Part shown: in pieces, positions 1-30,102 of the stretch
Layout: every line of letters begins with the position of its first letter
Position numbering within the stretch: the stretch's first letter is position 1
Source: Thermodesulfobacteriota bacterium
GTDB taxonomy: Bacteria > Desulfobacterota_D > UBA1144 > Nemesobacterales > CSP1-2
DNA length: 64,000 nucleotides
Reading direction: 5' to 3'
NCBI GenBank assembly: GCA_049682815.1
Contig: JBAUII010000078.1
Span: forward strand, 37,763 to 101,762
Program-made: the position numbers and the translations under genes
The notes under the pieces: model-generated
The model's database searches: none
The model's input: only the letters and a program-made list of their open reading frames with translations
Told to the model about the DNA's origin: nothing

Positions 1-1656
1 AGATATACCTATTACCGGTATACCCCAGAAGACTGCAAAGTAATCGAACTTCTCCCAATAAGTCCACCTGTCCAGTTTTGGACGAGCACCCAGGTATAAG
101 AACCAGCGTACGTTTCGATAGAGATCGACTAGGTCTTCCCTTCGAGGAATCATGGAATTAGGACCATACAGAAGGGTTATGTCGCCCTTTGAAAATATCT
201 TGTCCAGCATATAGCCGAGATGAAAACTAATGTAACCCAATGTCACTATTGCAAAGAATCTATGGAAGTACCTTGTTACCTCTACTCCACCGAGTATACC
301 TTCCAGAATTCTCCCCCACCACGTGTAATTATACATAAGCGGTAGTCCCGTCGCAGCAAGTCCTAAGAAACTAATAATAACGGCGACGTGGGTAATTCGA
401 GTGGGAAGGCTAAATCGGAGAACATACTTGCCACTGCTCCAGCGAGTAGGAACCTCTCCCTTCGCAACTGCTACAGCCGACCGTTGAAACCAAAGAACCA
501 TATGGAGCCCAAAAAAGCCAAAAACTGAAATAAGGAGCCAATTCATCAAGGAATAGACGTAATAAAGCAGAGGAGATCTATCCGGATCGCCGGGATCAGC
601 ATGTGGGTCATAGCTTACAAATTTCTCACTTATATCAGCGTGACACCTGCCACAAGTATTAATCAGATTGGCAGGGTAGACTGAAGAAAGTGGGTTGTCA
701 TTGGGGAGATTCAGGTGAGGTGTATGGCAGTCTGAGCATTTTGCAACCTGAACAAACCCTAGCGACGTTGACTGCCCGTGAAATGTATCCTGATAGGTAA
801 GCGCCCTCTCCCCATGGCATACACTGCACTCCTCTGATATCTGAAGCCTGAATCCAGCTGACACGGGCTCCGTGATCTGATGGGATTTGTGACATGTCGT
901 ACACACTGGTCCCACGTCAAGTCCTTCCTTCCAGAGCTGTCCATGTATACTCCTCTCATACTCATCATAAATTCCAAGGTGACACTTCTTACAGGTAAGT
1001 GGTATATTCTCTCTGTAGACACTCGAGTTTTTGTCAGTTTTTGGCCTTATGTTATGTGCACCATGGCAGTCGGAGCAAACCGCGGAGACAACTAATCCAC
1101 TGACAAGGACGCCACGGCCGTGAACACTTTCGCTGTAGCTCTCGATAAATTCCGGTGACGGGAGAGGGTGCTCCTTTGTGATCTTTTCGCTTGTATGGCA
1201 ATTTGAACATGTCGCAGGAATATTCAATGGGTTTATACGAGATTTAGGGTTATCCTTTGGAAGAATACCGTGTGAGCCATGACAACTCGTGCAAATTGGG
1301 GCATCGCTATCACCCCTCGCTATCGCTTCACCATGTATGCTTTCGGAGTATTCTTTTGCAATCTCCGGGTGACATGAAGAGCAATCAACCTTATTCGGAA
1401 TTTCCTCGTGGGGTATTTCTGTTACGTCCTGATGGCAATCTGTGCACTCGAAGCCACTATGGATTGAGGCATCTAAGAGTCCTTTATCAACCAAGGGTTC
1501 CATCGTTTCGTGACACACAAGACAGTCTTCGCTTTTAGGCTCTTCAGAACGGGAAGCAACTGTGAAGGGACAAAGAATTAAGAAGAAAAGAGTTAAAAAA
1601 AACAATGACTCATTTGATCGCGTAACTTTTATCACATGTTGCCTGTTCTTTAACAT
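1..1656 (-). CDS. Multiheme cytochrome c (11 CxxCH motifs) fused to a C-terminal diheme b-type cytochrome domain (HydC/FdnI/Ni_hydr_CYTB-like). The 3' end runs off the window. CbcL-like.
   Basis: The minus-strand frame is open from position 1 to about 1656, so it is absent from the complete-ORF track. Reverse-complement reading gives CLVCH, CTDCH, CSSCH, CTSCH, CSNCH, CSDCH, CKKCH, CTTCH, CSVCH, CSDCH and CGRCH. These are followed by four or more hydrophobic helices carrying conserved His (LHMVLWF, THVAVII, RYFHRFF..FHLGYM). The N-terminus MLKNRQ..SLFFLTLFFLILCPFTVAS is signal-like. The start is assigned to the ATG at 1656-1654. Confidence 0.7.
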   Translation of the reverse strand, partial: MLKNRQHVIKVTRSNESLFFLTLFFLILCPFTVASRSEEPKSEDCLVCHETMEPLVDKGLLDASIHSGFECTDCHQDVTEIPHEEIPNKVDCSSCHPEIAKEYSESIHGEAIARGDSDAPICTSCHGSHGILPKDNPKSRINPLNIPATCSNCHTSEKITKEHPLPSPEFIESYSESVHGRGVLVSGLVVSAVCSDCHGAHNIRPKTDKNSSVYRENIPLTCKKCHLGIYDEYERSIHGQLWKEGLDVGPVCTTCHKSHQITEPVSAGFRLQISEECSVCHGERALTYQDTFHGQSTSLGFVQVAKCSDCHTPHLNLPNDNPLSSVYPANLINTCGRCHADISEKFVSYDPHADPGDPDRSPLLYYVYSLMNWLLISVFGFFGLHMVLWFQRSAVAVAKGEVPTRWSSGKYVLRFSLPTRITHVAVIISFLGLAATGLPLMYNYTWWGRILEGILGGVEVTRYFHRFFAIVTLGYISFHLGYMLDKIFSKGDITLLYGPNSMIPRREDLVDLYRNVRWFLYLGARPKLDRWTYWEKFDYFAVFWGIPVIGIS

Positions 1657-3033: not shown

Positions 3034-3846
3034 CTAAGTAACCTCCTTGTCTAGATTCGCATAGTAGACCTTGGGTTCTGTATTAAGATAGGGCTTTAAG
3101 ACACCAATATTGTTGAATCGGACAAAACGCGCAAGGGGATTGTTGCGAGGTTTTACTTCTCCAAAAGTTCTTGCTCCAGTGGGACATACCTCTACGCACG
3201 CAGGCTGCAATCCCTTTACGATTCTGTGATAGCAAAATGTGCATTTGTCCGCCGTCTTTGTCTCGGGATTGAGATATCTCGCTCCATAAGGACAGGCCTG
3301 AATGCAGTAACGACATCCTATACAGTAATCTTTATCAACGAGGACAACGCCGTCTATTGACTGGTATGTGGCTCCAACAGGACAGACCTGCACACAGGGT
3401 GGATTATTACATTGATTACATAACTTTGGAACAAAAAACGTGCGTAGGATTTCCTTTTCACTAATGGGTTCAGGAAAACCGTGCATTCCACCTTCAGGAC
3501 TGTCCACACTCGTTTCCCCATCGACTGTAATAGTATATCTTTCCACCCAGGTTCTAAAGAAATAGGGTTCCTTAGGAACATTATTTTCAATCTTGCACGC
3601 CTCTACACATCGTCCACACCCTATGCACTTATCGATGTCAATACCCATAGCATAGTAGTGCTCCCTCGGATTGTATTTCCCATAAATACTTTCCAATGTG
3701 GAAGTGCTTTCACTAGATGCCTTTTTCAAGAAGGGGAATAGCTTAGAAAAAAGCCCGCCAAGAAAAAACCCGGAGGGGATTATGAGAAGGCTTTTAAGAA
3801 AGTTCCTCCTATTTGTTACGTTATCAAGAAGCTCTTTAGCATTCAT
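3034..3846 (-). CDS. Tat-exported 4x[4Fe-4S] ferredoxin subunit, NrfC/PsrB/HybA-like
   Basis: Twin-arginine motif RRNFLKSLLI. Four Cys clusters are present: CIGCGRCVEAC, CNQCNNPPCVQVCP, CIGCRYCIQACP and CTFC..CVEVCP. It overlaps the upstream cytochrome gene at ATGA. Confidence 0.8.
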   Translation of the reverse strand: MNAKELLDNVTNRRNFLKSLLIIPSGFFLGGLFSKLFPFLKKASSESTSTLESIYGKYNPREHYYAMGIDIDKCIGCGRCVEACKIENNVPKEPYFFRTWVERYTITVDGETSVDSPEGGMHGFPEPISEKEILRTFFVPKLCNQCNNPPCVQVCPVGATYQSIDGVVLVDKDYCIGCRYCIQACPYGARYLNPETKTADKCTFCYHRIVKGLQPACVEVCPTGARTFGEVKPRNNPLARFVRFNNIGVLKPYLNTEPKVYYANLDKEVT

Positions 3847-4592
3847 TGCTTCTCATCCTCCTTTGTGCGCGCTTCAGGATAATGGGGGTAGTGACACTCC
3901 CAGCACAAAAAACCATTGCCATGGGTTTTAATGTCGACACGCGGAATTTCAGGGGAACTTTCGGCTTCCTGTGCGTGGCACTGTCCACAGAATTCTCTAT
4001 TCCTCGGTTTATCCGGCAAAGCCATCCTTGGGTTTAATTTATGCTCTTCCTTCGCTTCGTGGCATCGAGTGCAGGCTAGGGGTGCGTGGGGTGACACAAT
4101 TTTAGTTCGAGCGATTTGCGTGTGGCATGGATCGCATTCTTCGGGCGTGACCGGAGGAACCGGATCATGGGGATTATGACAGAAAATGCAAGGCTTACCC
4201 GGATTATGCCTAACAGGGTCAATCTGTGGGAATCCTGTGGGTCTCGTGGGATTATATCCATGACACAATGGACAATAGGCGCGTTTTCTTGGTGCAGGGG
4301 GTTTGTACTCATACGGGTCCTGGGTATGGGCATAGGCAGGCCCATGGCATACTTCACAGGCGACCCCCCGATGGTATGATTTGTCTTTCAAAACGTATAT
4401 ATCATCATGGCATTCGGTGCATGCAGTTTCCCCGCCATACTTAATTTCCCTGGAGACTGCGGATTGTAATGAATCGGCACGATAATGACCGTATTGCCCA
4501 AAACTTGCGGGCATAAGAAAATGGCGGACAATTAGGAAAATGAAAATCAAGACAATAGAAAGGGCGAGAAGATATTTTATCTGTTGGGGCAT
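3843..4592 (-). CDS. Octaheme c-type cytochrome with N-terminal membrane anchor
   Basis: The 249-aa ORF contains 8 CxxCH motifs (CTECH, CEVCH, CPLCH, CIFCH, CDPCH, CTRCH, CGQCH, CWECH). An N-terminal hydrophobic helix YLLALSIVLIFIFLIV is present. Confidence 0.8.
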   Translation of the reverse strand: MPQQIKYLLALSIVLIFIFLIVRHFLMPASFGQYGHYRADSLQSAVSREIKYGGETACTECHDDIYVLKDKSYHRGVACEVCHGPAYAHTQDPYEYKPPAPRKRAYCPLCHGYNPTRPTGFPQIDPVRHNPGKPCIFCHNPHDPVPPVTPEECDPCHTQIARTKIVSPHAPLACTRCHEAKEEHKLNPRMALPDKPRNREFCGQCHAQEAESSPEIPRVDIKTHGNGFLCWECHYPHYPEARTKEDEKQ

Positions 4593-4722
4593 TCCTGACT
4601 CCTTTCACAATATCAAAAAATAATTAGGACCCCCTTTTTCTTCTGTCATAGTTTTCATGGACAAGAACGTTTTTAAGATCATCATGTTGTAAAGTCGCGC
4701 CTTTGCCTGAAATTTATGCAAT

Positions 4723-8039: not shown

Positions 8040-8507
8040 CTATTTTGCGTATGGAGTTGCAGACAACGGTTGAGGCGGTTTCAAATTAGCATCCTGACTA
8101 ATAGGAGCTTTCTCAAGGTGTATCCGTTCTACTCTCTGTATCTTGTCATCTGCATCATAGTAGATAACAAATCTACCAGTTTCTTCCTTGCCAGCCACAG
8201 CTTCGACAGGCGTCCCGATTACTTCCCATAGTCCTAATGTGAGTACATCCATCACACCGTGACCAATAGCTCTACCGGCTGATGGATCATTCCCTTTTAC
8301 GATCAGATAAGTATCTACCCAATTACCGTCTTTATCTCTCATCTCTGCATCAGGCATCCCTACTTTGGCAATCACGAATGACCTCTCTGCGCCGTTATAG
8401 AAGACACTTGTATCCTTCTGTTCATTGCCGGAGAGTGCCATCCCGACAGAACATCCTGAACATAATATTACTAAAAGAATAACCCCAACTATTTTAAGGC
8501 GTCTCAT
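8040..8507 (-). CDS. Hypothetical lipoprotein
   Basis: Signal peptide with a lipobox (LVILCSGCS). GGAGG RBS upstream. No recognisable catalytic motifs. Confidence 0.5.
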   Translation of the reverse strand: MRRLKIVGVILLVILCSGCSVGMALSGNEQKDTSVFYNGAERSFVIAKVGMPDAEMRDKDGNWVDTYLIVKGNDPSAGRAIGHGVMDVLTLGLWEVIGTPVEAVAGKEETGRFVIYYDADDKIQRVERIHLEKAPISQDANLKPPQPLSATPYAK

Positions 8508-8809
8508 TTTGAACCTCCGAAGCTAGGTTTGGATTCCTCACATTAGTTATCCTAGCTTAGTATCCAAAAATCTTATCCTGACACTCCTGACAAAAGCCGG
8601 ATATTCTGTACTCCCTCTCCGACATACCATCCTTGAATTCACATCAACCTGAGTTCCTACTGTTGGGTTACCGACTTCCTGTGCGATAAGTTCCTGAATA
8701 TAAGCACTAGCCGAGACCCCTCTGGTTTTGGCCGTCCGCGGAGCGGATTAATCATAAGAATCTAATTTGAAATCCACCCCAATACGGCTCAATCTGCTTT
8801 CGGTTTCAT

Positions 8810-9157
8810 TTACGCAGTGAGTTGCGGAAGGTCCAAGCACTTCTTTTTACATCTGACTTTGCCGCTATCAAATGCCGAACACTGAGTAACATCATCGTAT
8901 TCTCTGAAAGTGAAGATACTGGGCTCGAATTTCGCTGAAACAACCTTTTTTTTAAAAGGGCAGAAAAAGGTTTTCAGCACTAGTCGCTTCGATATTGAGA
9001 TAGCTTCTGCCCCAAAGTAAACAAGAATGACTATCATGCCCAATAGAGCAATAAGCATTGCACCTACGGCATAAGGAGCCAATAATGCGATAAATATAAC
9101 AGCAGCGATACCTTTCATAATTTGCATCATCTTATTTATTACCTCCCTGGTGTTCAC
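8810..9157 (-). CDS. Hypothetical small membrane protein (2 TM, Cys-containing C-terminal tail)
   Basis: The 115-aa ORF has two hydrophobic helices. Dyad-rich putative operator region upstream. Confidence 0.4.
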   Translation of the reverse strand: MNTREVINKMMQIMKGIAAVIFIALLAPYAVGAMLIALLGMIVILVYFGAEAISISKRLVLKTFFCPFKKKVVSAKFEPSIFTFREYDDVTQCSAFDSGKVRCKKKCLDLPQLTA

Positions 9158-9238
9158 TTAGTTGCAATTTAAATGCCAAATGAAAGCCTAGTTTTTATAA
9201 TAATTTGTGTATGTTACGATACAGGCGCGGCGTCAACC

Positions 9239-9300
9239 TGTCAGATGTCAAATAAACTGACATTAAAGACTGACAAAGCGACGGAAGTACGATGGTACTT
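9239..9300. promoter_or_regulatory. Cluster of dyad repeats: TGTCA-ga-TGTCA-N7-TGACA-N8-TGACA, followed by GAAGTAC-gatg-GTACTTC
   Basis: Read directly. It lies 80-140 nt upstream of the start codon of the 8810-9157 gene (minus strand). Confidence 0.3.
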
Positions 9301-9915
9301 CGAGAAGAAAATTGACGATGCCTGCTTCTAATTTTCCATAAAGCTCTCATCAAGGGTTAGCAGACTTCTGGAGAGTATAAAGCCATTGAGACCCCGCTTA
9401 TTATTGATATAGGACTCGAAGATTTCGAAAACCTTTCCTATGAAAAAAAGGGGCGATCTATATCACCAATCACTCTTTGAATCAGTTGAATAAGTTAGGT
9501 TTATACATTGCAGCCGATTCATATTCAGCTAAGACATTGGGAATACGTTCATATTATATTGGTATGAAATTTGCAATCGTTTTAGTAGTCAAATGATAAT
9601 GAGAGGGAATAATACGGTAAGTGTTATTTTGATCCCAGTTACTTATTGGTGGATTCAGGAAGCGATGGCTGTTCATGGAACCTGGAAACGCTGTGAATCA
9701 CCAGTTCGGGTTTTGCTATTCCTTCTCACTACGCCATCTATGATCGGCTTAATTAGGTCGGGTTCTGGGACGCGAGACGGAAGTTCAATAGAGTATTTGG
9801 GTTCTGCTTTGCAAGTTCTAATGACATCCGATATAATTGATTCGAAATCTATTCTGGGGTCTTTGAGTTTTTAGTAGAAAAAGATTAAATAAAATAGATT
9901 TTACTCGGGTTAATC

Positions 9916-10575
9916 ATGAATCTCCTTTTAGCTCTGACTTTTATATCAATGCTTGGTTCGCTCTATGCTTCATTTATTTACGCGCCGACCGAGAGGATCA
10001 TGGGACCGATCCAAAAAATTTTTTATTTCCATATGGGAACCGTTTGGGTCGCCACAATTTCATTTGTAATCGTGTTTGTTGCAAGTATACAGTATCTGAG
10101 AAAAGAAAGTCGCAACTGGGATATTCTGGCCTACTCTTCTGCTGAAATAGGGGTGGTTTTTATCACGCTTACGATAGTATCGGGTAGTATTTGGGCAAAA
10201 CCAATCTGGGGGACCTGGTGGACTTGGGATCCGCAACTCACTACTACGTTTATTCTCTGGATTCTCTACATTGTTTATATGATAGTGCGTTCATCTGCGG
10301 GTAATGATATTAGGAAGGCAAAATTTGCCGCTGTTTTCGGGATTATCGCGTTTTTAGACTTGCCGCTTGTTTACATTTCGGCGAGAGTTATGCGTGGAAT
10401 CTCCCCGGTTGTGTTTGGATCCCGTGGGGGTGGTATTGCGCCGGAGATGATGGTAGCATTGCTCGTTACACTAGTAGCTTTTACTTTTTTGTTCATCTTG
10501 ATACTTAAGCATAGAGTAGAACTAGAAATCATGAAAGATAATATCCTTAGGATTAGATTAATGGAGGCAAAGTAA
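9916..10575 (+). CDS. ccmC: Heme exporter protein CcmC (System I cytochrome c maturation)
   Basis: Six TM helices. The tryptophan-rich WWD-type motif WGTWWTWDPQLT is present. Confidence 0.85.
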   Translation: MNLLLALTFISMLGSLYASFIYAPTERIMGPIQKIFYFHMGTVWVATISFVIVFVASIQYLRKESRNWDILAYSSAEIGVVFITLTIVSGSIWAKPIWGTWWTWDPQLTTTFILWILYIVYMIVRSSAGNDIRKAKFAAVFGIIAFLDLPLVYISARVMRGISPVVFGSRGGGIAPEMMVALLVTLVAFTFLFILILKHRVELEIMKDNILRIRLMEAK

Positions 10576-21557: not shown

Positions 21558-23567
21558 GTGTTAAATCTCTTTAAAATTAAGACGGATTTCTCTCCTAAAG
21601 GTGATCAGCCATCGGCCATAGATAAGCTTACAAAAGGTGTCCTTAAGGGCTTTAAGCATCAAGTACTGCTAGGAGTGACAGGAAGTGGCAAGACCTTCAC
21701 TATTGCAAAAGTCATCGCTAATCTGGACAAGCCAACGTTAATTATTGCGCATAATAAGACACTTGCCGCACAATTGTATGGGGAACTCAAAGAGCTGTTT
21801 CCGGAAAATGCGGTGCATTACTTTGTCAGCTACTATGATTATTATCAACCCGAAGCCTATATCCCGGAAACGGACACCTATATAGAGAAGGATGCATCTA
21901 TAAATGAACATATCGATAGACTAAGACACGCGGCAACCTCATCGCTCTTCGATAGAAGAGACGTAATTATAGTTGCAAGCGTTTCGTGTATTTATGGTAT
22001 AGGCTCTCCCGACGACTATTACGGTATGCTTACCATAATTGAGGAAGGGATGGCTTTCGAGAGGGACGAGTTTCTTAGGAAGCTTGCCGATGCGCATTAT
22101 GAAAGGAGCAACAACGAATTTTACAGAGGTAGTTTTACCGTCAGAGGCGACTCGGTAGAGCTCTTTCCATCTCACGAAGAGTCGATAGCGTTAAGGGTGG
22201 AATTTTTTGGTAATTATGTCGAATCAATAAAAGAGATCGAACCATTAAGAAGGAAAACGATAAGAAATATAAAAAAAGCTATCATATATCCGAACACACA
22301 TTATGTTGCGCCAACGGAGAAAGTAATTCGTGCAATAAAAGGTATAAAGGAAGAGCTAATAGAGAGAATAGCCTACTTTGAATATCGGGGAATGACCTTG
22401 GAAAAGAAACGAATAGAGGAAAAAACAAATTATGATCTCGAACTCCTCTCTACAATCGGTTTCTGCCCGGGGATCGAAAACTATTCAAGGCACCTATCGG
22501 GGAGGAGACCAGGGGAACCTCCTTGGACGCTATTGGACTATTTTCCAAAGGATTCGTTATTTATAATAGATGAAAGTCATCAAACAGTCCCGCAGCTTAG
22601 GGGAATGTATGAGGGCGACAGGAGCAGGAAGCTAACTCTGGTGGAGCACGGCTTTAGGCTTCCCTCCGCTATCGACAACCGACCACTTAACTTCTCTGAG
22701 TTTGAGGAAAAGATCAATCAAGTGATTTTTGTCTCGGCTACCCCCGGGCCATATGAGCTTTCGAAATGTAACACGGAGGTTGTTCAACAGATCATTCGCC
22801 CCACCGGACTGGCTGATCCTGAGATAGAAATACGACCCGCAGAGAATCAGGTGGACGATCTTCTAGAGGAAATAAAAAAGACGGTAGAAATGTCCGATCG
22901 GGTCCTTATAACTACTCTTACCAAACGCATGGCAGAGGATTTGGCCGAATATTATAGACGACTCGGTGTAAGGGTAAGGTATATACATTCCGACATTGAG
23001 ACACTGGAGAGGATTAGAATCATAAGGGACCTCAGGGTTGGGGTTTTTGATGTTCTAATAGGGATCAATCTTCTGCGCGAAGGTCTTGATATACCTGAGC
23101 TGTCCCTTGTTGCTGTATTAGATGCGGACAAGGAAGGATACCTCCGTTCAGAAACATCCCTGATACAGATCTTCGGCCGAGCTGCCCGCAATATACGGGG
23201 AAAGGTTATAATGTACGCAGATACGATAACAAGGTCGATGTCGAGGGCAATATATGAAACCCGCCGACGGAGGGAAATTCAAATAGCATTCAACAAGTCA
23301 AATCATATCACACCAAGGAGTATCGAGAAGAGGATAAGCGATATACTCGCTTCTATATACGAAGCAGACTATTTCACTGTTCCAAAGGATGATGAGGGTG
23401 AGATATTAGAAGTTGCTCCTGAAAAGATTCCGGGCCTTATTAAGACACTCACAGAGGAGATGAAACTCGCTGCGAATAAGCTCGAGTTTGAGAATGCAGC
23501 CCGCAGCAGAGACAAGATAAAGAGACTCCGTGATCTGGAAATTAAATACCTGGGGGAGATAAAGTGA
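21558..23567 (+). CDS. uvrB: Excinuclease ABC subunit B
   Basis: GVTGSGKTF Walker A, helicase motifs and a C-terminal UvrB/UvrC interaction region. Confidence 0.95.
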
Positions 23568-25618
23568 ACCTATCGCAGGCACAGGTTTTGTTCACGCATC
23601 TGATCGCTCTGTTAGGGTTTTTTTCAATATGGATTACGGGGGCGGTCAATGATCTATCGGCCATCGTTTTTGTGGCAGCGTTAACTTTTAGCTTCATCAA
23701 TTCAAAGAGTCCCAGACAATACTATATAAACGAAAGCCTATCTACATTCCTCGCTATATCGCTTGTAGTCTATGTTTTAATGAGCTTCTTTCTTCTTGGG
23801 GTCGAAGTCTTCAAGGCAATTTTAATTTTTTTGATCTATACCCAGATCATTAAACTTCTCGCAAGGAAGACAATAAGAGATATTGTTCAAATCTACATAC
23901 TGAGTTTCTTTCAATTCCTTGCTGGGTCTGTGGTTGCTATAAATTTTGGCTATGGAGTTGCATTCGTAGCGTACGTCGCAGTATCTCTTTCTGCGATGGT
24001 TATTCTTAATATCACAAAAGAATCTCATGATACTTCTAGCAAAGAGGATCCTAACTTTGTTACTGGAAAATTTTTAAGTACCACAGCTTTGATCGGTATC
24101 TGCGTTTTAGTATTTACTGCAATGATCTTTATTTCTGTCCCAAGAATTAGAACAGGTTTTTTTATGAGTAATTTTATGAGACCCGAATCATTGAGAACCG
24201 GATTCTCAGATGAAGTAAAACTAGGACAGGTTGGACAAATTAAGTACGATACTTCGCCCGTGATGCGGGTAATGATTTTAAACAAGGAGATAAAACGGGT
24301 TCCAAGACCTATTTATTGGAGAGGCATAGCGCTTGATCAATTTGATGGAACTCATTGGAGAGCCAGTAATCGCAACTATCGAACCATCAGAAAAAAAATC
24401 GATGGAGAAACAATGGTAAAGCACTCGGGAAATAAATTATTAGCCCAGGAGATATTAACTGAACCAATAGACACGGATATTCTATTTTCAGCTAACGTTC
24501 CTGTTGGCTTTCAAGGCCTAGAGGGAAGTATGATCACTGAGATAAATGACTCATACATTCTTCCGAATAAGACATCCTATAAGCTCAAATACTTAGCATA
24601 CTCAGATTTGCAAGTCCCGGAGGCCTATGACTTGAGAACCGACCAAGGGGAATATCCAGCTGAGATAATGAATAGTTATCTCCAACTACCAATTCTAAAT
24701 AAAAAAATTCAAGATCTTGCAAAACAGTTGACAATGGACAAAACCAATCCATATGATAGGGCGATTTCTATCAAAAATTATCTTCAAAACAATTTAAAAT
24801 ATACGAGAACCTTAGAAAAGGGAACCAGCGAATTCCCGTTAGATGATTTTCTATTCGAAAATAAGGCTGGACATTGTGAATACTTTGCTACATCCATGAC
24901 AGTTATGCTAAGGGCTCTGGGTATTCCTTCAAGAGTCGTTAATGGATTTATTGATGGTCAGTGGAATGCACTCGGCGACTTTTTTTTAATAAGAGAAAGC
25001 GATGCCCACTCCTGGGTAGAGGTCTATTTCCCGACAAATGGTTGGGTTAGTTTCGATCCAACACCAGAGAGTGCGGACCCAGATGCGGAAATGGGTGCCT
25101 TTTATTTCTTTAGTTCATATTTAGACTACTTGAAATTCCGTTGGAGTAGGTATGTAATAGATTATGATCAAAAGGATCAAAATCAATTCTTCAGTCATCT
25201 GAGGAGCAAGTGGGTCTGGCAAAAGAGAAAATTACAAACTAAGAGTTTTAGTGAACTCTTGGTTGGTAAGAGATGGTTGATAGCATTAGGCATTTTGACT
25301 TTTACCGCCTTGTTATTCTTGAAAACGCCCGTATTCACAAGACTGCCTAAGCTTCGAGAAAGCGACACTGAGAAAAGAGCCTCTTCAATTTACAAAAAAG
25401 CGCTCTACATGTTGTCTAAGAAGGGATTTAAAAAGCACGATTATATGACGCCAAGAGAATTTGCTAAAGCCGTAAGCCTAGATGACAATTCAGCATCGAA
25501 TACCTTTCGAGCTTTGACAGAGGAATATTTGGAGCTCAGGTTTGGCAAATCTAATGTCGATGAGAAGATTAAAAATTTAGAAAGGCTACTTCTTATTTTG
25601 AGAAACGATATTATATAG
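23564..25618 (+). CDS. Transglutaminase-like domain membrane protein (TgpA-like)
   Basis: N-terminal polytopic region. Transglutaminase core with Cys (GHCEYFAT), His (DAHSWVEVY) and Asp (FDPTP). Confidence 0.8.
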
Positions 25619-25642: not shown

Positions 25643-25863
25643 GTCATTCCCGAGGACTGTTATCGGAAATCCATATTGTCATCGCGAAGCGCAAAGCCCT
25701 GTGGCGATCTCCTCCCTATCGCTCGAAAAACTAGGATACTTTGACGAATAAAAAGAAGAAAACAAGAAGGGTGAAGTTAACGACAAAGGAAGTAACAAAG
25801 ACAATCTAAAAAACAGCAGGGGAAAAGACCAAAAACAAAAATAGCTCATTTATTCATGACCCC
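25643..25863 (+). repeat. Repeat family copy A, about 220 bp. It shares the 5' block gtcattcccgaggactgttatcgg..gcgaag..ccctgtggcgatctcct and the 3' block aaaaacaaaaatagctcatttattcatgacccc with copies B and C.
   Basis: Direct alignment by eye with 26796-26940 (same orientation) and with the reverse complement of 29321-29532. Confidence 0.75.
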
Positions 25864-26010
25864 AGAGATTCTTCGCGGGCAAGACTTGCTGGGATAACAT
25901 GAGCCTTCGCTGGGAAGAGGTGGTAGCTGTGTCGGGTGGATGCAGTGTTGGGCCGCAATGTTTAAAGTACGCTAATAACGACCATCCTTTTCCGATGCAT
26001 GCGGGAGAAG

Positions 26011-26490
26011 TTAATCTGTAGCGCCCTTTGTTTGATTGGTGAGGTAATTCTCGAGACCCATCTGCCCGATTTGCTCACGTTGCATTTCTGCCCAATCCAC
26101 ATGATCCTCTTCCATCTTGAGAATGCGGGTCAACAGGTCAACACTGCTCTGGTCACCCACTTCGTGCGCCAGGGCGATGGCATCATTGTAAGCATGCACG
26201 GCTGCAAGTTCAGCATCCTGGTCGCCCGTAATAATTTCAAGGACAGTTGTGCCGACTTTGATCGGATTGAGCTTTGAGACAATCGGTGTGCCCTCTAGAA
26301 AGAGGATACGCTGGATAAGCCACTCAGCGTGGTGCATCTCGTCCTTTGCTTGTCCCTCAATGGCCTTGTGGAGCTTATCATAGCCCCAATTGTCGCACAT
26401 CTCCGAGTGCACCATGTATTGATTGATTGCAGTGAGCTCATCCGCGAGGAGTTGGTTGAGCACTGCCAGTAACTTTTCGTTGCCTTTCAT
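26011..26490 (-). CDS. bfr: Bacterioferritin
   Basis: MKGNEKLLAVLNQLLADELTAINQYMVHSEM... is typical of Bfr. The start is assigned to the ATG preceded by the AAGGAAGG RBS rather than the longer track ORF. Confidence 0.85.
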   Translation of the reverse strand: MKGNEKLLAVLNQLLADELTAINQYMVHSEMCDNWGYDKLHKAIEGQAKDEMHHAEWLIQRILFLEGTPIVSKLNPIKVGTTVLEIITGDQDAELAAVHAYNDAIALAHEVGDQSSVDLLTRILKMEEDHVDWAEMQREQIGQMGLENYLTNQTKGATD

Positions 26491-26559
26491 TTTTTTCCTT
26501 CCTTTATAAGTTGGAGTATCTGTCAAACATAGCATGAGACCAATGACAAAGTCAAAAGG

Positions 26560-26683
26560 GGTACGAAAAAAAATTGTGTAACAGCGCGTCGAGAAACTTC
26601 TCCCCGACGACTTTATTGAGGATCAAGTTCGTAAGACAATAAGGCGCGAGCACTACTCTTTTCGTACCGAAAAGAGTTATTTG
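26560..26683 (+). promoter_or_regulatory. Structured leader/attenuator-like element. A hairpin CTCTTTTCG-tac-CGAAAAGAG plus TTATTTG competes with long-range pairing GGTACGAAAA(26560-69)/TTTTCGTACC(26659-68). There is also a nested stem CGTCGAGAA..TTCTCCCCGACG.
   Basis: The complementarities are read directly. The two helices share the segment TTTTCGTACC and so are mutually exclusive. The element sits in the divergent bfr / rcnR-like intergenic region. Confidence 0.3.
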
Positions 26684-26795
26684 ACCTGAAAGAATGGAAA
26701 AAGGGGAGCATCCCCATTAATTTCGCACTCTTTCTCGTCATCGTACTTCGACTAGCCTGTACTGATTATGATCGAAGTGCTCAGTATAGACTCCA

Positions 26796-26940
26796 CTGTG
26801 GCGATCTCCTGCCTATCTGTTAAGGGACTAGGTTACTTAGACGAAATGAAACAAATGGACGAGAGGGATGAAGGTCAGGATAATTCAGAAAATACTGGGA
26901 AAGAAAAACAAAAATAACTCATTTGTTCATGCCTGACCCC
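26796..26940 (+). repeat. Repeat family copy B (3' two-thirds clearly conserved; the 5' part is degenerate)
   Basis: ctgtggcgatctcct..ctagg.tactt.gacgaa..aaaaacaaaaataactcatttgttcatgcctgacccc aligns with copy A. Confidence 0.7.
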
Positions 26941-27021
26941 CTGCCCATTCATTTAGTTTGACAGCATTCCTAGCAAAGCAGATTTCCTCTATTTGCTTCT
27001 TAATCCATTGAGAAATATACC

Positions 27022-27033
27022 ATACCGGGGTAT
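27022..27033. promoter_or_regulatory. Candidate CsoR/RcnR-type operator ATACCGGGGTAT (a G/C tract flanked by TAC/GTA inverted arms), overlapping a TATATT -10-like hexamer
   Basis: Read directly, 40-50 nt upstream of the RcnR/CsoR-family gene. It resembles the known architecture of CsoR/RcnR operators. A second GGGG tract lies at 27041-27044. Confidence 0.4.
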
Positions 27034-27074
27034 ATTATCAGGGGACACGGAACTACCAAGATGGAGAGAGAATA

Positions 27075-27353
27075 ATGGCTCATACAATCAGGGACAAAAA
27101 GAAGCTTATAAATCGAGTGCGACGTATCCGCGGTCAAGTCGAAAGCATCGAGAGGGCTCTTGAGGAAGAAAAGGATTGCTCAATTATCCTTCAGAGTATT
27201 GCTGCATGTCGTGGTGCGATTAACGGACTAATGGCCGAGATTCTGGAAGGTCACATCCGTTTCCATGTGTTCGATCCTGATCAAAACCCGACCTCAGAAC
27301 AATCTAAGGCCGCACAAGAAATAATTGATGTAGTAAAAACCTACTTAAAATAG
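27075..27353 (+). CDS. CsoR/RcnR/FrmR-family metal-sensing repressor with an RcnR-like W-X-Y-Z fingerprint H3-C35-H60-H64
   Basis: 92 aa with a helical DUF156-like pattern. His at position 3 (MAH), Cys35 (KDCS) and His60/His64 (EGHIRFH). Confidence 0.8.
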   Translation: MAHTIRDKKKLINRVRRIRGQVESIERALEEEKDCSIILQSIAACRGAINGLMAEILEGHIRFHVFDPDQNPTSEQSKAAQEIIDVVKTYLK

Positions 27354-27395
27354 ACCTATGACACCGTAAGGAGATTCATAAAAGAACAAAAGGCG

Positions 27396-29336
27396 GTGAT
27401 AACAAAAATGGATACTGATCCGGGAGTGGACATTCATCCAAAGCTCAAGAAAGAAAACAATTCAGTCGATGCGTACGACATTAAGCATGGAGAACACAAT
27501 CATATAGAATGGGTAGATCTGACTCGAATCGGCTTCGTCGCACTTGGGATTGTTGCAAGTTGGTTAGGACTTTGGAAGGGATTTACGAGCTTTGACGTGA
27601 TTAGCCTTGTGGCAACACTAATAGGTGGCTATCCGATCTTTCGGGAGGCAATCGCGTCTCTCATCTCCAGGCGGATGACGATGGAACTCTCTATGACCAT
27701 TGCTCTAGGAGCGGCTTTAGCCATTGGTGAGTTCTTCACCGCTTTGGTAATTGTGCTCTTTGTGCTGATCGCCGAAGTGTTAGAGAATCTTACTGTCAGC
27801 CGAGGCAGGGGTGCAATCAAAGATCTTCTTGAACTGTTGCCTCAGAGTGCTACTATCCGTCGCGAAGGCCAAGTGCAAGAGGTTCGTACTACTGAGATTC
27901 AAGCGGGTGATAGCGTCATCATAAAGCCTGGCAGTCGAATTCCAGTGGATGGGGTTGTTATCCGTGGAAACTCCTTTGTAGACCAATCTACTATCACCGG
28001 TGAATCGATGCCTGTAGAGAAGGTGAAAGGCTCACAGGTCTATGCCGGAACGATTAATCAATCGGGCTTGCTTGAGGTCCGACCGGTCAAACTCGGTCGA
28101 GATACCGCGTTCGGGAAGGTCATCCAGGCAGTTGAACAGGCTGAAAAGTCCCGTGCACCAATCCAAAAAACTGCCGACCGACTCGCAGGATACCTAGTCT
28201 ACTTTGCCATTATCTGTGCTGCGCTCACTTTCCTCGTTACACGCGATATGCGCTCTACTATCTCAGTTATCATCGTTGCTGGTGCATGCGGAATTGCAGC
28301 AGGTACTCCACTCGCTATCCTTGGTGCCATTGGCCGTGCCGCCCGCAACGGAACTATCGTCAAGGGTGGACTGTATATGGAAATCTTAAGTGTCATAGAC
28401 ACTGTTCCTTTGGACAAGACGGGCACATTGACATTCGGAAACCCAGAAGTTACCAATGTGTATCCGCGTAATGGAGCGACGACCCAGGCCGTTTTGGAAG
28501 CTGCAGCCATTGCTGAACGGTGTTCGGAACATATTTTAGGTAAAGCTATATTAAAGAAAGCCTCTGAAATATCCCTTTCTATCGCTGAACCAGAACGGTT
28601 TGAGTATATTCCAGGTAAAGGCATTATCTGCTCGCTCAACGGAGAAGAAATTATCGTTGGTAATCGGAGTCTTTTTGTGGAAAAACACTTTGATATCGAT
28701 GAGTTTGCAGGCACTTCTGACCATCTGTCGGAAGTGCTTGTTGCCCGTGATGGACAATTCCTCGGTACTCTGCAGATTTCGGACGTGCTGCGCCCGGAAG
28801 CTGTGGAGGCGGTACGCATGCTTCGAGAAATGGGCATAAGAACCATACTTTTGACTGGTGACTCAAAGGCTATCGCTCACGCAGTTGGAAATGAGCTTGG
28901 TGTGGACGAGATATTTGCTGAACTCCTTCCAGATCAGAAACTCAACAAAGTGAAGTCACTTATCCTAGAGGGAAAGAAGGTTGCCATGGTAGGCGACGGG
29001 ATTAATGATGCTCCGGCATTGATGCAGGCGAGTGTTGGTGTTGCAATAGGCTCTGGGACAGACATTGCAAGGGAGAGCTCAAATGTCCTGCTTATAGGCA
29101 ACGATCTTCTCAAATTCGTGGAGGTACTCAGGATTGCCAGGCAGTGCCATCGGATCATTATGACAAACTTCGCAGGGACTTTGCTTGTAGACGGAGTAGG
29201 TGTTGGGCTTGCCGCTTTTGGACTACTGAGTCCCCTCCTCGCGGCTTTCATCCATGTTTTCTCGGAACTTGTGTTTATCCTGAACTCGGCGAGAATGCTC
29301 CCTAGGAAGTGCGTGGGGTCAGGCGTGAATAAATGA
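27396..29336 (+). CDS. P1B-type heavy-metal-translocating P-type ATPase, with no N-terminal HMA domain, a His-rich N-terminus and a non-canonical TM motif
   Basis: TGES, DKTGTLT and GDGINDAPAL motifs. About 8 TM helices. The N-terminus has HGEHNH. The canonical CPC/SPC position reads AGACG (no proline). Confidence 0.85.
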   Translation: MITKMDTDPGVDIHPKLKKENNSVDAYDIKHGEHNHIEWVDLTRIGFVALGIVASWLGLWKGFTSFDVISLVATLIGGYPIFREAIASLISRRMTMELSMTIALGAALAIGEFFTALVIVLFVLIAEVLENLTVSRGRGAIKDLLELLPQSATIRREGQVQEVRTTEIQAGDSVIIKPGSRIPVDGVVIRGNSFVDQSTITGESMPVEKVKGSQVYAGTINQSGLLEVRPVKLGRDTAFGKVIQAVEQAEKSRAPIQKTADRLAGYLVYFAIICAALTFLVTRDMRSTISVIIVAGACGIAAGTPLAILGAIGRAARNGTIVKGGLYMEILSVIDTVPLDKTGTLTFGNPEVTNVYPRNGATTQAVLEAAAIAERCSEHILGKAILKKASEISLSIAEPERFEYIPGKGIICSLNGEEIIVGNRSLFVEKHFDIDEFAGTSDHLSEVLVARDGQFLGTLQISDVLRPEAVEAVRMLREMGIRTILLTGDSKAIAHAVGNELGVDEIFAELLPDQKLNKVKSLILEGKKVAMVGDGINDAPALMQASVGVAIGSGTDIARESSNVLLIGNDLLKFVEVLRIARQCHRIIMTNFAGTLLVDGVGVGLAAFGLLSPLLAAFIHVFSELVFILNSARMLPRKCVGSGVNK

Positions 29337-29532
29337 GTTATTTTTGTTTTTGTTCCCCGCGATTTCTTTGAAGCGTCCTTCCTATTTCCCGTCCCATCAA
29401 TTTTTTCCCTGTTGGCTTTCCTCTTTTCGTTTGAGGATCCTAACACTTGAAGAAATAAAAAGGAGATTGACACAGGGCTTCGCCCTTCGCAATGACCTCT
29501 CTATGGATTCCCGATAACAATCCTCGGGGGAT
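29321..29532 (-). repeat. Repeat family copy C (inverted relative to A and B). Its terminus overlaps the last 6 codons and the stop of the ATPase gene.
   Basis: The reverse complement aligns with copy A at both ends. ggggtcaggcgtgaataaatga encodes GSGVNK-stop of the ATPase. Confidence 0.75.
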
Positions 29533-29598
29533 GACCGTAGAAGAGAATAGGTGCTATTAAATTTATAGAAAAAAGCAATGGTCACGCTTTTCCCGGAA

Positions 29599-30102
29599 TC
29601 AAATGAAAAATATTAAAAAGCGAATGATTACATATGCCAGAAATCCCAATACAGAAATAAGGATTGCTCTAGATGTCTCACAGTCGAGTGCTTGCCTTAT
29701 TGCAACTATGAAGGTTAGAAATACCCAAATCGACGTAATATAGGGAACGAAATGTCCAATAAATGGCAACAGCATAAAAATGTTTAAAATACCGGGTGAA
29801 TAAGCGAAGCCTAGGCATCTGAGGAGTTCCCCCAGATCTGAAGAATGCCCAAACCCCCTGACTCCGATAACATAAATTATGACACTCCATAAGACCCAGG
29901 CTATAATTGAAGATACTACGCCAGTTATTATGCCCATTGAGCCCGATATACCAATCATTCCTATTCCATTGCTTATTGAAACAAGTAGTACAGCGAGGAA
30001 GGCTTCTTTTGTAGCAGCTGGGTCGCGCTCAACCTCATCGTAAAGGTTTATATCAAGTTTTGAAGCGGCGATCATTCTTCTTATGAGATCCATTGTAGTC
30101 AA
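29599..30102 (-). CDS. Yip1-domain family membrane protein
   Basis: 167 aa with 4-5 TM helices and a Yip1/DUF1282-like pattern. Confidence 0.55.
   Translation of the reverse strand: MTTMDLIRRMIAASKLDINLYDEVERDPAATKEAFLAVLLVSISNGIGMIGISGSMGIITGVVSSIIAWVLWSVIIYVIGVRGFGHSSDLGELLRCLGFAYSPGILNIFMLLPFIGHFVPYITSIWVFLTFIVAIRQALDCETSRAILISVLGFLAYVIIRFLIFFI

Follow-up and report, generated by a model that had tools for sequence, protein, structure and literature searches.

Decayed mini-gene repeats around a metal-pump module in a variable locus of Candidatus Dadabacteria

When a 64-kb stretch of contig JBAUII010000078.1 (positions 37,763 to 101,762; GenBank assembly GCA_049682815.1) was read from its letters alone, three copies of a repeat, A, B, and C, were noticed around a small group of metal genes. 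These are a bacterioferritin/ferritin-like gene (bfr), a csoR/rcnR-like regulator gene, and a gene for a P1B-type ATPase whose last codons lie in copy C. The whole stretch, called the window here, comes from the lineage Dadabacteria, which NCBI places inside Thermodesulfobacteriota. The locus raises the question of what this repeat is and why a metal pump should end in it. The sequence-only reading had offered two answers: either a recombinogenic element, or one like a miniature inverted-repeat transposable element (MITE), marks a mobile or rearranged cassette, with A and B as relics of ATPase 3' ends, or the repeats form a regulatory RNA in which B pairs with C. We found that all three repeats belong to a previously undescribed family of mini-genes, specific to the lineage of Candidatus Dadabacteria and present in multiple copies, and that the ATPase has borrowed its stop codon from copy C.

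Three decayed members of a dispersed mini-gene family

A 3' block of 33 to 37 nucleotides (nt) is common to A, B, and C. Its 23-nt core, AACAAAAATARCTCATTTRTTCA, occurs exactly three times in the window, at 25834 to 25856 and 26907 to 26929 on the forward strand and at 29326 to 29348 on the reverse strand, and not once in 100 dinucleotide shuffles of the window. A 5' hairpin block common to A and C is far beyond chance, as is the sequence CTGTGGCGATCTCC, common to A and B. In an unbiased repeat search, A and B came out as a direct pair, with one stretch of 88 nt at 72% identity and another of 28 nt at 93%, and C was inverted, with 51 nt of B (pair I1) 86% complementary to it and two stretches of A, of 30 nt and 27 nt, each 93% complementary. 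A profile built from related copies matched A, B, and C and nothing else in the window (E = 2e-37, 2.5e-33, and 5e-35, respectively), in each case over the core and the block with the stop codon in register. The three copies are thus real and about where they had been placed, A and C as inverted repeats around the metal genes and B in the promoter region between the divergent bfr and csoR/rcnR genes. Their proposed extents held in part: that of A was about right, while C is longer, reaching about 29589 and keeping the decayed start of an open reading frame (ORF), and B starts at about 26739 and includes a hairpin at 26759 to 26786.

Within the window the copies occur at this locus only, as they would if they were just local duplicates or chance similarities in AT-rich DNA, an explanation to which we give next to no credence. 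Pairwise identity among A, B, and C is only 67 to 70%, and each has a closer relative outside the window (79%, 82%, and 74%, respectively), so they are old family members and not the result of a recent local duplication. An AT-rich background does not account for them either, given the absence of matches in the shuffles and profile E values of 1e-33 to 1e-37. A genome-collection scan with a strict 22-nt pattern returned one real relative, L007, on a 727-kb contig of a Candidatus Dadabacteria metagenome-assembled genome (MAG); six chance AT-rich matches (L001 to L006) were dropped. Scanning metagenomes for the block gave 40 loci: 36 contain a real copy, no two of them in the same sequence context, and four (L024, L026, L037, and L044) are chance matches. 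The repeat is therefore not unique to the three sites in the window, and the size of the family (36 metagenome loci and the protein clusters described below), the profile matches, and the low mutual identity refute local duplication and chance similarity. At many other loci, the profile search found 2 to 5 copies inside a few kilobases. In the MAG containing L007, at least three intact and at least five decayed copies were seen in about 42 kb, with BrnT, ParE, Phd, HigB-like, AIPR, HEPN, and PD-(D/E)XK genes as neighbors.

The intact unit is about 250 to 300 bp long and consists of promoter-like sequence, an ORF for a protein of 45 to 50 amino acids (aa), and the conserved block after the stop codon. 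The promoter-like sequence, TTCCGA-N17-TATAAT, is sigma-70-like and lies about 12 nt upstream of the ATG in intact copies. The encoded protein consists of MCDPVLIAAILEELGYFDEKK, predicted to form a short helix at the N terminus, and a disordered tail rich in Lys, Glu, and Asp. Several copies open with ATG TGT GAC CCA GTG CTA ATA GCC GCA ATT CTT GAA GAA CTA GGA TAC TTC GAC GAA AAG. A single frame runs through the purine-rich middle to a TAA or TAG inside the block (...AAAAA, then TAA, then CTCATTTATTCAYGCCTGACCCC), and this stop is at a fixed position in all 31 copies compared. Behind the block CTCATTTATTCAYGCCTGACCCC, RGRGATT usually comes next, and often a small hairpin resembling a terminator as well; in several copies this hairpin, AAAGGGTTGCGTCCCCTTTAATT, stands about 25 nt past the block. 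At L036 (about 640 to 730, reverse strand), L014 (2725 to 2820), and L010 (3900 to 3990), an alternative 3' module of about 75 to 90 nt, ending in ...CATGTCAAGGCCTGACAC, takes the place of the short block behind the stop codon. Neither this longer module nor the short block is present in P0026, an intact copy (L048, 10001 to 10144).

The start of the ORF is under protein-coding selection, because in nine ORF-start codons of eight distinct copies, 2, 1, and 9 of the 9 columns vary at codon positions 1, 2, and 3, respectively, and this pattern is gone in both shifted frames. Pairwise codon differences over the ORF start of the eight copies amount to 101 synonymous and 26 nonsynonymous. The locus thereby leads to a repeat family that is new, confined to this lineage, and founded by an orphan 50-aa gene under protein-level selection. 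Two other readings of the repeat as coding sequence were rejected. A frame through the block, ITHLF(M/T)PDP, has an in-frame stop 6 to 15 codons upstream in most copies and nonsynonymous substitutions, and a hydrophobic antisense ORF (MSYFCF...), considered as a type I toxin, is not conserved in length.

About 159 clusters in the protein database, of 38 to 84 aa, belong to the family, all annotated as hypothetical and without a Pfam domain. Residues 1 to 21 hardly differ from cluster to cluster; the tail is charged and variable. When 1.84 billion representatives were searched exhaustively with a profile, 85 proteins were found, all of 110 aa or less, so the mini-ORF is not a fragment of a transposase or another large protein. 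AlphaFold2 predicted a helix at residues 4 to 13 (pLDDT of about 88) and disorder afterward. The element is matched by no curated RNA or protein family in Rfam, Pfam, NCBIfam, or PADLOC: searches of the latter three with the small protein gave no match, and its sole match in PHROGs, to phrog_12605, for which no function is assigned, was not convincing (E = 0.014 to 0.085). Neither the block nor the ORF start is present in viral contigs, and in the searchable library we found no mention of repeats in Dadabacteria or of the peptide and DNA motifs of the element. Contigs with an intact mini-gene are mostly only 0.5 to 3 kb long, which points to breaks at the repeat in metagenome assemblies of these organisms.

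The copies in the window are pseudogenes, with nested hairpins and premature stops. None has an intact promoter and a full ORF; the promoter is absent, and the MCDPVLIAAI start is absent or, in C, left as a decayed trace. Each copy has its own lesions (Table 1), and C has in addition lost the start codon. Hairpin modules such as GTCATTCCCGAGG...TCGGGAATCC and GTCATCGCGAAGGGC...CTGTGGCGATCTCC are nested at one position, after codon 11 (directly behind GCAATCCTC), in all three window copies and in many copies from metagenomes. Many copies are noncoding through hairpin modules, frameshifts, and premature stops, and the disrupted form is found at many unrelated loci; therefore, the unit spreads or is copied whatever its coding capacity. 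Modules beginning with GTCAT are seen in all three window copies (Table 1) and in L022, L027, L036, L039, and L051 (7150 to 7260). Their combinations vary, which gives them the look of a second, smaller repeat family that prefers one target, and no free-standing module was found elsewhere in the window. The ORF start (ATGTGTGACCCAG) resembles the block end (ATGCCTGACCCCAG) in direct orientation (family consensus; window positions 25852 to 25866 and 26925 to 26943), and the block might be the start, cut short, of a unit that came next, or else a core site that the two share.

A foreign metal module with a borrowed stop codon

The csoR-ATPase module of 2.34 kb is of foreign origin. It shares about 90% nucleotide identity with L052, L053, and L054 and about 83% with L055 and L056, where the pair stands in wholly different neighborhoods, none of which holds the element; L052 and L053 have only the module itself in common. 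Because copies about 90% identical occur in unrelated contexts, the pair is a horizontally moving module. The GC content of the A-to-C segment is 0.46 to 0.52, versus 0.36 to 0.42 in the flanks. Homology starts 114 nt upstream of csoR and so includes its promoter/operator region, with a 20-nt filler back to the last base of B (26940). It ends 15 nt ahead of the native ATPase stop, and a 10-nt filler and then copy C follow. The promoter-like site and the palindrome that overlaps it (27008 to 27040) are conserved in L052 and L053, and the palindrome, ATATACCATACCGGGGTATAT, is a candidate operator of the CsoR/RcnR type. A part for B in csoR regulation, as proposed earlier, finds no backing here, since the promoter-like site that fits csoR best is part of the acquired module, on the downstream side of B. 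In L052 (5590 to 7927; GCA_038826335.1, labeled Thermoproteota archaeon), the module is 90% identical at the DNA level and stands beside SNF2-helicase, RadC, and MFS genes; the explanation is either faulty binning or transfer across domains.

In the 28 proteins most closely homologous to the ATPase, the C terminus is ...FILNSARLLPxxSK(N) followed by the stop, in some after a short extra tail. The window ATPase ends in ...FILNSARMLP-RKCV-GSGVNK-stop. On the complementary strand, the block reads GGGGTCAGGCRTGAATAAATGAG, and its TGAATAAATGA stretch carries TGA, TAA, and TGA in three different frames. At least six unrelated genes, of 100 to 565 codons, end in the complement of the block, across the three frames (examples in Table 1). 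Because unrelated genes end in it likewise, GSG(V/M)NK-stop is the sequence of the element read backward and not an ATPase relic, and the stop codon of the window ATPase is borrowed from copy C. The true end of the coding sequence does lie in C, as had been claimed, the ORF ending at 29336; GSG(V/M)NK-stop, claimed for all three copies, is found in C (GSGVNK-stop) and B (GSGMNK-stop) but not in A, which lacks 4 nt and reads G-VMNK-stop. The relic proposal for A and B does not survive, as the native end is NSARLLPxxSK(N)-stop, homology stops at 29304, short of the repeat, and a three-frame translation of A shows no ATPase-like sequence. The replacement of the last five or so native residues is probably harmless to the pump. 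The gene shows clearly how a metal pump that was acquired horizontally and truncated at its 3' end is rescued by a repeat that supplies the stop codon, and for annotation it means that the last 6 to 10 residues of genes abutting these repeats are nonnative.

The ATPase has no N-terminal heavy-metal-binding domain, and at about residues 285 to 300 it reads VAGACGIAAGTP, without proline, at the position of the CPC motif that copper and zinc pumps have in a transmembrane helix. Thousands of homologues exist at 65 to 75% identity, and the type looks like a distinct and widespread subgroup. The window ATPase is paired with a FrmR/RcnR-like repressor. An exact-protein look-up of it returned no record; a 100%-identical ATPase, P0121, is encoded on a 123.5-kb MAG contig whose label agrees with a place in Thermodesulfobacteriota.

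That the copies act as cis- or trans-acting RNA for metal homeostasis, with B in the 5' region pairing with C in the 3' untranslated region of the ATPase gene or with B as an antisense regulator, we consider very improbable. C does lie in the 3' untranslated region, and were both copies transcribed from the forward strand, B and C would form a duplex of about 50 bp (-71 kcal/mol). Co-folding, suggested earlier as a check, thus gives a strong duplex, but one expected of any inverted pair: the complementarity exists because B and C are inverted copies. The window has no match at Rfam gathering thresholds, and a permissive E-value mode gave one chance-level match elsewhere. The repeat cores fold like mononucleotide-shuffled sequence (z-scores of -1.1 to +1.3). 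Moreover, the element stands next to dozens of unrelated genes in both orientations, B is kept at the orthologous position in L007, L034, and L041, where the operon is absent, and the csoR promoter/operator travels with the module, whose relatives function without any element. C may still have a side effect on the stability of the ATPase mRNA.

The 3' block as a boundary of variable DNA

Comparison with relatives shows that variable DNA repeatedly begins at the 3' block, with a boundary precise to the nucleotide, and that the module and C are variably present. In window orientation, L007 is 91% identical up to 25650, 88% identical over 25850 to 26940, and 94% identical from 29598 on. It has A', bfr, and B and then 139 unrelated bp where the window holds 2,657 bp of module and C, so that the synteny comparison suggested by the sequence-only reading came out in favor of a variably present metal cassette. 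B and its left flank are orthologous in the window, L007, L034, and L041, and four different sequences follow exactly after ...TGACCCC. A stands straight after tgpA in four genomes (window, L007, L021, and L030), and behind it in L021, small toxin-antitoxin-like ORFs and two more copies take the place of bfr. Over all copies, the flanks past the block form two classes: either RGRGATT follows, or divergence begins directly behind TGACCCC. In L029, two copies with facing blocks enclose a single gene, as B and C enclose the metal module, and in L051, four co-oriented copies on the forward strand separate ParE, Phd, and HigB-like toxin-antitoxin cassettes. This co-oriented single-cassette layout was seen in L051; C is inverted in the window, and L029 and L010 are arranged otherwise.

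Taken as a whole, the account that we favor, and consider probable, is that decayed mini-gene repeats stand at the edges of swappable gene blocks and that the pump runs into one of them, copy C. Copies gather in accessory regions between housekeeping genes, the slot from tgpA to the 167-aa gene and rimP being one case; the flanks of the window locus are indeed housekeeping genes. The foreign csoR-ATPase module sits between the facing 3' blocks of B and C, having arrived 15 nt short of its own stop; the frame of the pump continues via the 10-nt filler into C and terminates at the third of the three staggered stops in TGAATAAATGA. The block would be a hot spot of recombination or insertion. Our best guess is repeated breakage and joining at or beside it. 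Both processes could be helped by the 26 to 37 bp of near-identity between copies and by the palindrome that arises where copies lie tail to tail, and junctions inside gene ends would be tolerable owing to the three-frame stop. Illegitimate joining is favored over precise cassette excision because of the fillers and the truncated module. Of the first earlier proposal, a dispersed, recombination-associated element marking a rearranged metal cassette has stood, but the ATPase relics and the MITE have not. The stories of an ATPase relic and an RNA switch are thereby replaced by a testable one, in which the family delimits variable gene content in the poorly known class Dadabacteria and would account for assembly fragmentation at such sites.

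Several observations weigh against this account. The mini-gene product is a predicted one, and the 3' half of the ORF, of low complexity and often frameshifted, has no codon-position signal. Most copies were found via the block search, so the conservation of the block is partly ascertainment: among 17 copies found independently of the block, 8 have it with 1 to 4 changes, 5 have the alternative longer 3' module or another sequence after the stop, and the others stop short of the block or are truncated. The 139-bp spacer of L007 contains no remnant of C (251 of 300 shuffles score as high), and either state, with or without the module and C, may be ancestral. The orientation of genes beyond the block shows no clear bias, and in the sequences compared, no enzyme, no target-site duplication, and no clean empty and filled site for a single copy were found. 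A comparison of L019 and L051 for a crossover inside the repeat pinpointed none.

The block could instead be the site of a dedicated site-specific system, integron- or att-like, whose cassettes are exchanged exactly behind ...TGACCCC by a recombinase encoded elsewhere. Nucleotide-precise breakpoints, with four sequences right after the TGACCCC of B, would suit such a system, and so would two discrete junction classes (after TGACCCC or after TGACCCCRGRGATT), the array-like L051, and the single gene of L029 between facing blocks, as with B and C. Yet we consider it rather unlikely, since no integrase or other recombinase was seen among the annotated genes of L048 and L051 to L056 or beside the window locus, with its housekeeping flanks, and by inspection the block has neither the R''/L''/L'/R' structure nor the GTTRRRY core of attC and fits no dif/Xer or integration host factor consensus. 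In addition, the module is truncated within a gene, the 20-nt and 10-nt fillers have the look of illegitimate joining, and the copies are of mixed orientation.

The attC sites known as Vibrio cholerae repeats are about 120 to 200 bp long and lie between the toxin-antitoxin and accessory cassettes of chromosomal integrons. The Dadabacteria repeats are like them in punctuating such cassettes between conserved genes with precise boundaries. Unlike attC, they show by inspection no RYYYAAC...GTTRRRY cores or hairpin architecture, and shuffled sequence folds as well as their cores do; an integrase of the integron type was not seen, the orientations are mixed, the repeat is protein coding, and the module is truncated and bordered by fillers. 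There is only a small chance that the block is the crossover site of an undescribed Dadabacteria gene-capture system in which the mini-gene and block take the role of attC. If it were, toxin-antitoxin, defense, and metal-resistance cassettes would form arrays between housekeeping genes, with the three-frame stop insulating the junctions, and a block that is a true recombination site would mean a new cassette-capture system.

Transposition is another candidate. Here the unit would be a nonautonomous transposable element mobilized in trans, with the GGGGTCAGGC... block as one end and a Tn3-like or Y1/RAYT-type enzyme (RAYT, REP-associated tyrosine transposase; REP, repetitive extragenic palindrome) as candidates, and B and C would come from intramolecular replicative transposition, a duplicative inversion that leaves the same end inward in both. 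Disrupted, noncoding versions at many unrelated loci, contigs that often break at the element, most of those carrying it being 1 to 3 kb long, and the same end facing inward in B and C and in L029 agree with this. Ends of the Tn3 family start with GGGGTC, and the sharp 3' terminus of the element, read from outside, does so too. In L041, the variable DNA downstream of the B orthologue contains a 319-aa ORF (3653 to 4612, forward strand) with a RAYT-like N terminus and a DnaA C-terminal-like domain. The RAYT-like match reaches 59.9 bits, below the curated cutoff of 80 (NCBIfam NF047646), and other findings also make transposition an unlikely explanation. Terminal inverted repeats are absent, with none in the intact L051 and L048 copies or in A and B and only a 13-nt match at 77% in C that the family does not share. 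No target-site duplication was identified, the 5' boundary is heterogeneous among copies, and A and B each stand at orthologous sites in four genomes. In contrast to Tn3-family elements and their Tn3-derived inverted-repeat miniature elements, which have 38-bp inverted repeats and a 5-bp duplication, only the outer GGGGTC is alike and there is no second inverted end. The absence from viral contigs is neutral on this question. A MITE-like element was invoked by the sequence-only reading; the unit is small and occurs in many dispersed copies, its intact members encode a protein of 45 to 50 aa under selection, and terminal inverted repeats are lacking.

Our favored account, of mini-gene repeats at block edges, brings the element close to other intergenic repeats. 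BOX (pneumococcal), Correia (Neisseria), and ERIC (enterobacterial) elements are modular intergenic repeats of 100 to 300 bp, often at gene ends. The Dadabacteria element resembles them in size, copy number, and modularity, in altering the 3' ends and C termini of its neighbors, and in marking points of rearrangement. It differs in that it has no terminal inverted repeats, that intact members are mini-genes with promoter-like sequence under protein-level selection, and that its most conserved part is the block after the stop and not a pair of termini. Long direct repeats (LDR) and hok/sok-type type I toxin-antitoxin repeats of Escherichia coli are repeat families that proved to be small-gene loci, and here too a repeat of a few hundred base pairs is a multi-copy small ORF with conserved untranslated flanks, often clustered, with decayed copies beside intact ones. 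The mini-gene peptide, unlike those hydrophobic toxins, is hydrophilic and acidic, the length of the antisense ORF is not conserved, and nothing points to an antisense RNA. Only the nested hairpin modules are like REP sequences and bacterial interspersed mosaic elements with a RAYT, being imperfect palindromes of 25 to 40 nt with a conserved 5' motif; the motif is GTCAT, not the canonical GTAG, and the RAYT-like match is the subthreshold one given above. As in putative mobile promoters, a promoter-bearing segment is repeated beside nonhomologous genes, but the downstream gene is codirectional in some copies only, many are convergent, and the window copies have no promoter. In sum, the element behaves like known intergenic repeats, with a layout like attC arrays, and fails the tests for a MITE, attC, a type I toxin-antitoxin locus, and a structured RNA.

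Layout of the locus

The features of the locus, together with genes at other loci that end in the block, are collected in Table 1.

Table 1. Features of the variable locus (window positions) and examples of genes at other loci ending in the complement of the 3' block
Feature	Position	Strand	Remarks
TgpA-like transglutaminase	23564-25618	+	Left anchor of the variable locus, conserved
Copy A	25643-25870	+	Profile E = 2e-37; directly after TgpA; orthologous by position in L007, L021, L030
Copy A, hairpin modules	25643-25712	+	Nested
Copy A, purine-rich former ORF core		+	Premature stop straight after ...LGYFDE
Copy A, 3' block	25831-25863	+	Stop is TAG; 4 nt missing ahead of TGACCCC
Copy A, canonical extension AGAGATT	25864-25870	+	
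Bacterioferritin/ferritin-like gene (bfr)	26011-26490	-	Between direct copies A and B; in L007, L034; absent after A in L021
Hairpin AAAGGGGAGCATCCCCATT	26700-26718		Terminator-like on both strands; of the hairpin family about 25 nt downstream of many element copies
Copy B	26739 (about)-26940	+	Decayed; orthologous in L007, L034, L041
Copy B, hairpin modules	26739-26795	+	GTCAT-type and GTACTGA...TCAGTA
Copy B, residual 49-aa ORF	26768-26917	+	N terminus replaced
Copy B, 3' block	26904-26940	+	
20-nt filler	26941-26960		From end of B block to start of module homology (blastn limits)
csoR/rcnR-like regulator and P1B-type ATPase module	26961-29304	+	Own promoter/operator; cut 15 nt before native ATPase stop
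Promoter-like site and palindrome ATATACCATACCGGGGTATAT	27008-27040	+	TTGAGA-N17-TATATT (27008-27036) overlapping the palindrome; 10/12 matches, best of the region
CsoR/RcnR-family repressor (FrmR/RcnR-like)	27075-27353	+	
P1B-type ATPase	27396-29336	+	
10-nt filler GGAAGTGCGT	29305-29314		Between module homology and C block; encodes RKCV of the ATPase tail
Copy C	29315-29589 (about)	-	Inverted, decayed; absent from close relative L007
Copy C, 3' block	29315-29351	-	Core next
TGAATAAATGA, complement of C block	29326-29336	+	TGA 29326, TAA 29330, TGA 29334, one per frame; last is the ATPase stop
Copy C, hairpin modules	29486-29535	-	
Copy C, decayed ORF start	to about 29589		AAGCGTGACC instead of ATGTGTGACC, 14-nt insertion; about 10 nt from the stop of the 167-aa gene
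167-aa membrane ORF	29599-30102	-	Right anchor, conserved; rimP-nusA-infB beyond
rimP-nusA-infB	from 30383	+	
START-like ORF, 235 aa	L013		Ends ...GSGVNK-stop in block
Secreted repeat protein, 565 codons	L040		Ends ...RGQA-stop in block
Restriction-system fragment, 183 codons	L009		Ends ...WGQA-stop in block
HNH-like ORF, 223 codons	L017		Ends ...WGHP-stop in block

The product of the 167-aa ORF has no match in Pfam, NCBIfam, PADLOC, or PHROGs. It is a multi-pass membrane protein by sequence, and the ORF adjoins rimP in L007 too, with 94% DNA identity. No tRNA gene was found in the 64-kb window. Elsewhere in the window, just one long stretch, 8507 to 9916, is free of large genes, and no repeats and no Rfam match were found in it. 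It holds a 115-aa membrane-like ORF (8810 to 9157, reverse strand) and, upstream of a CcmC-like gene, about 750 bp in which no ORF exceeds 93 aa.

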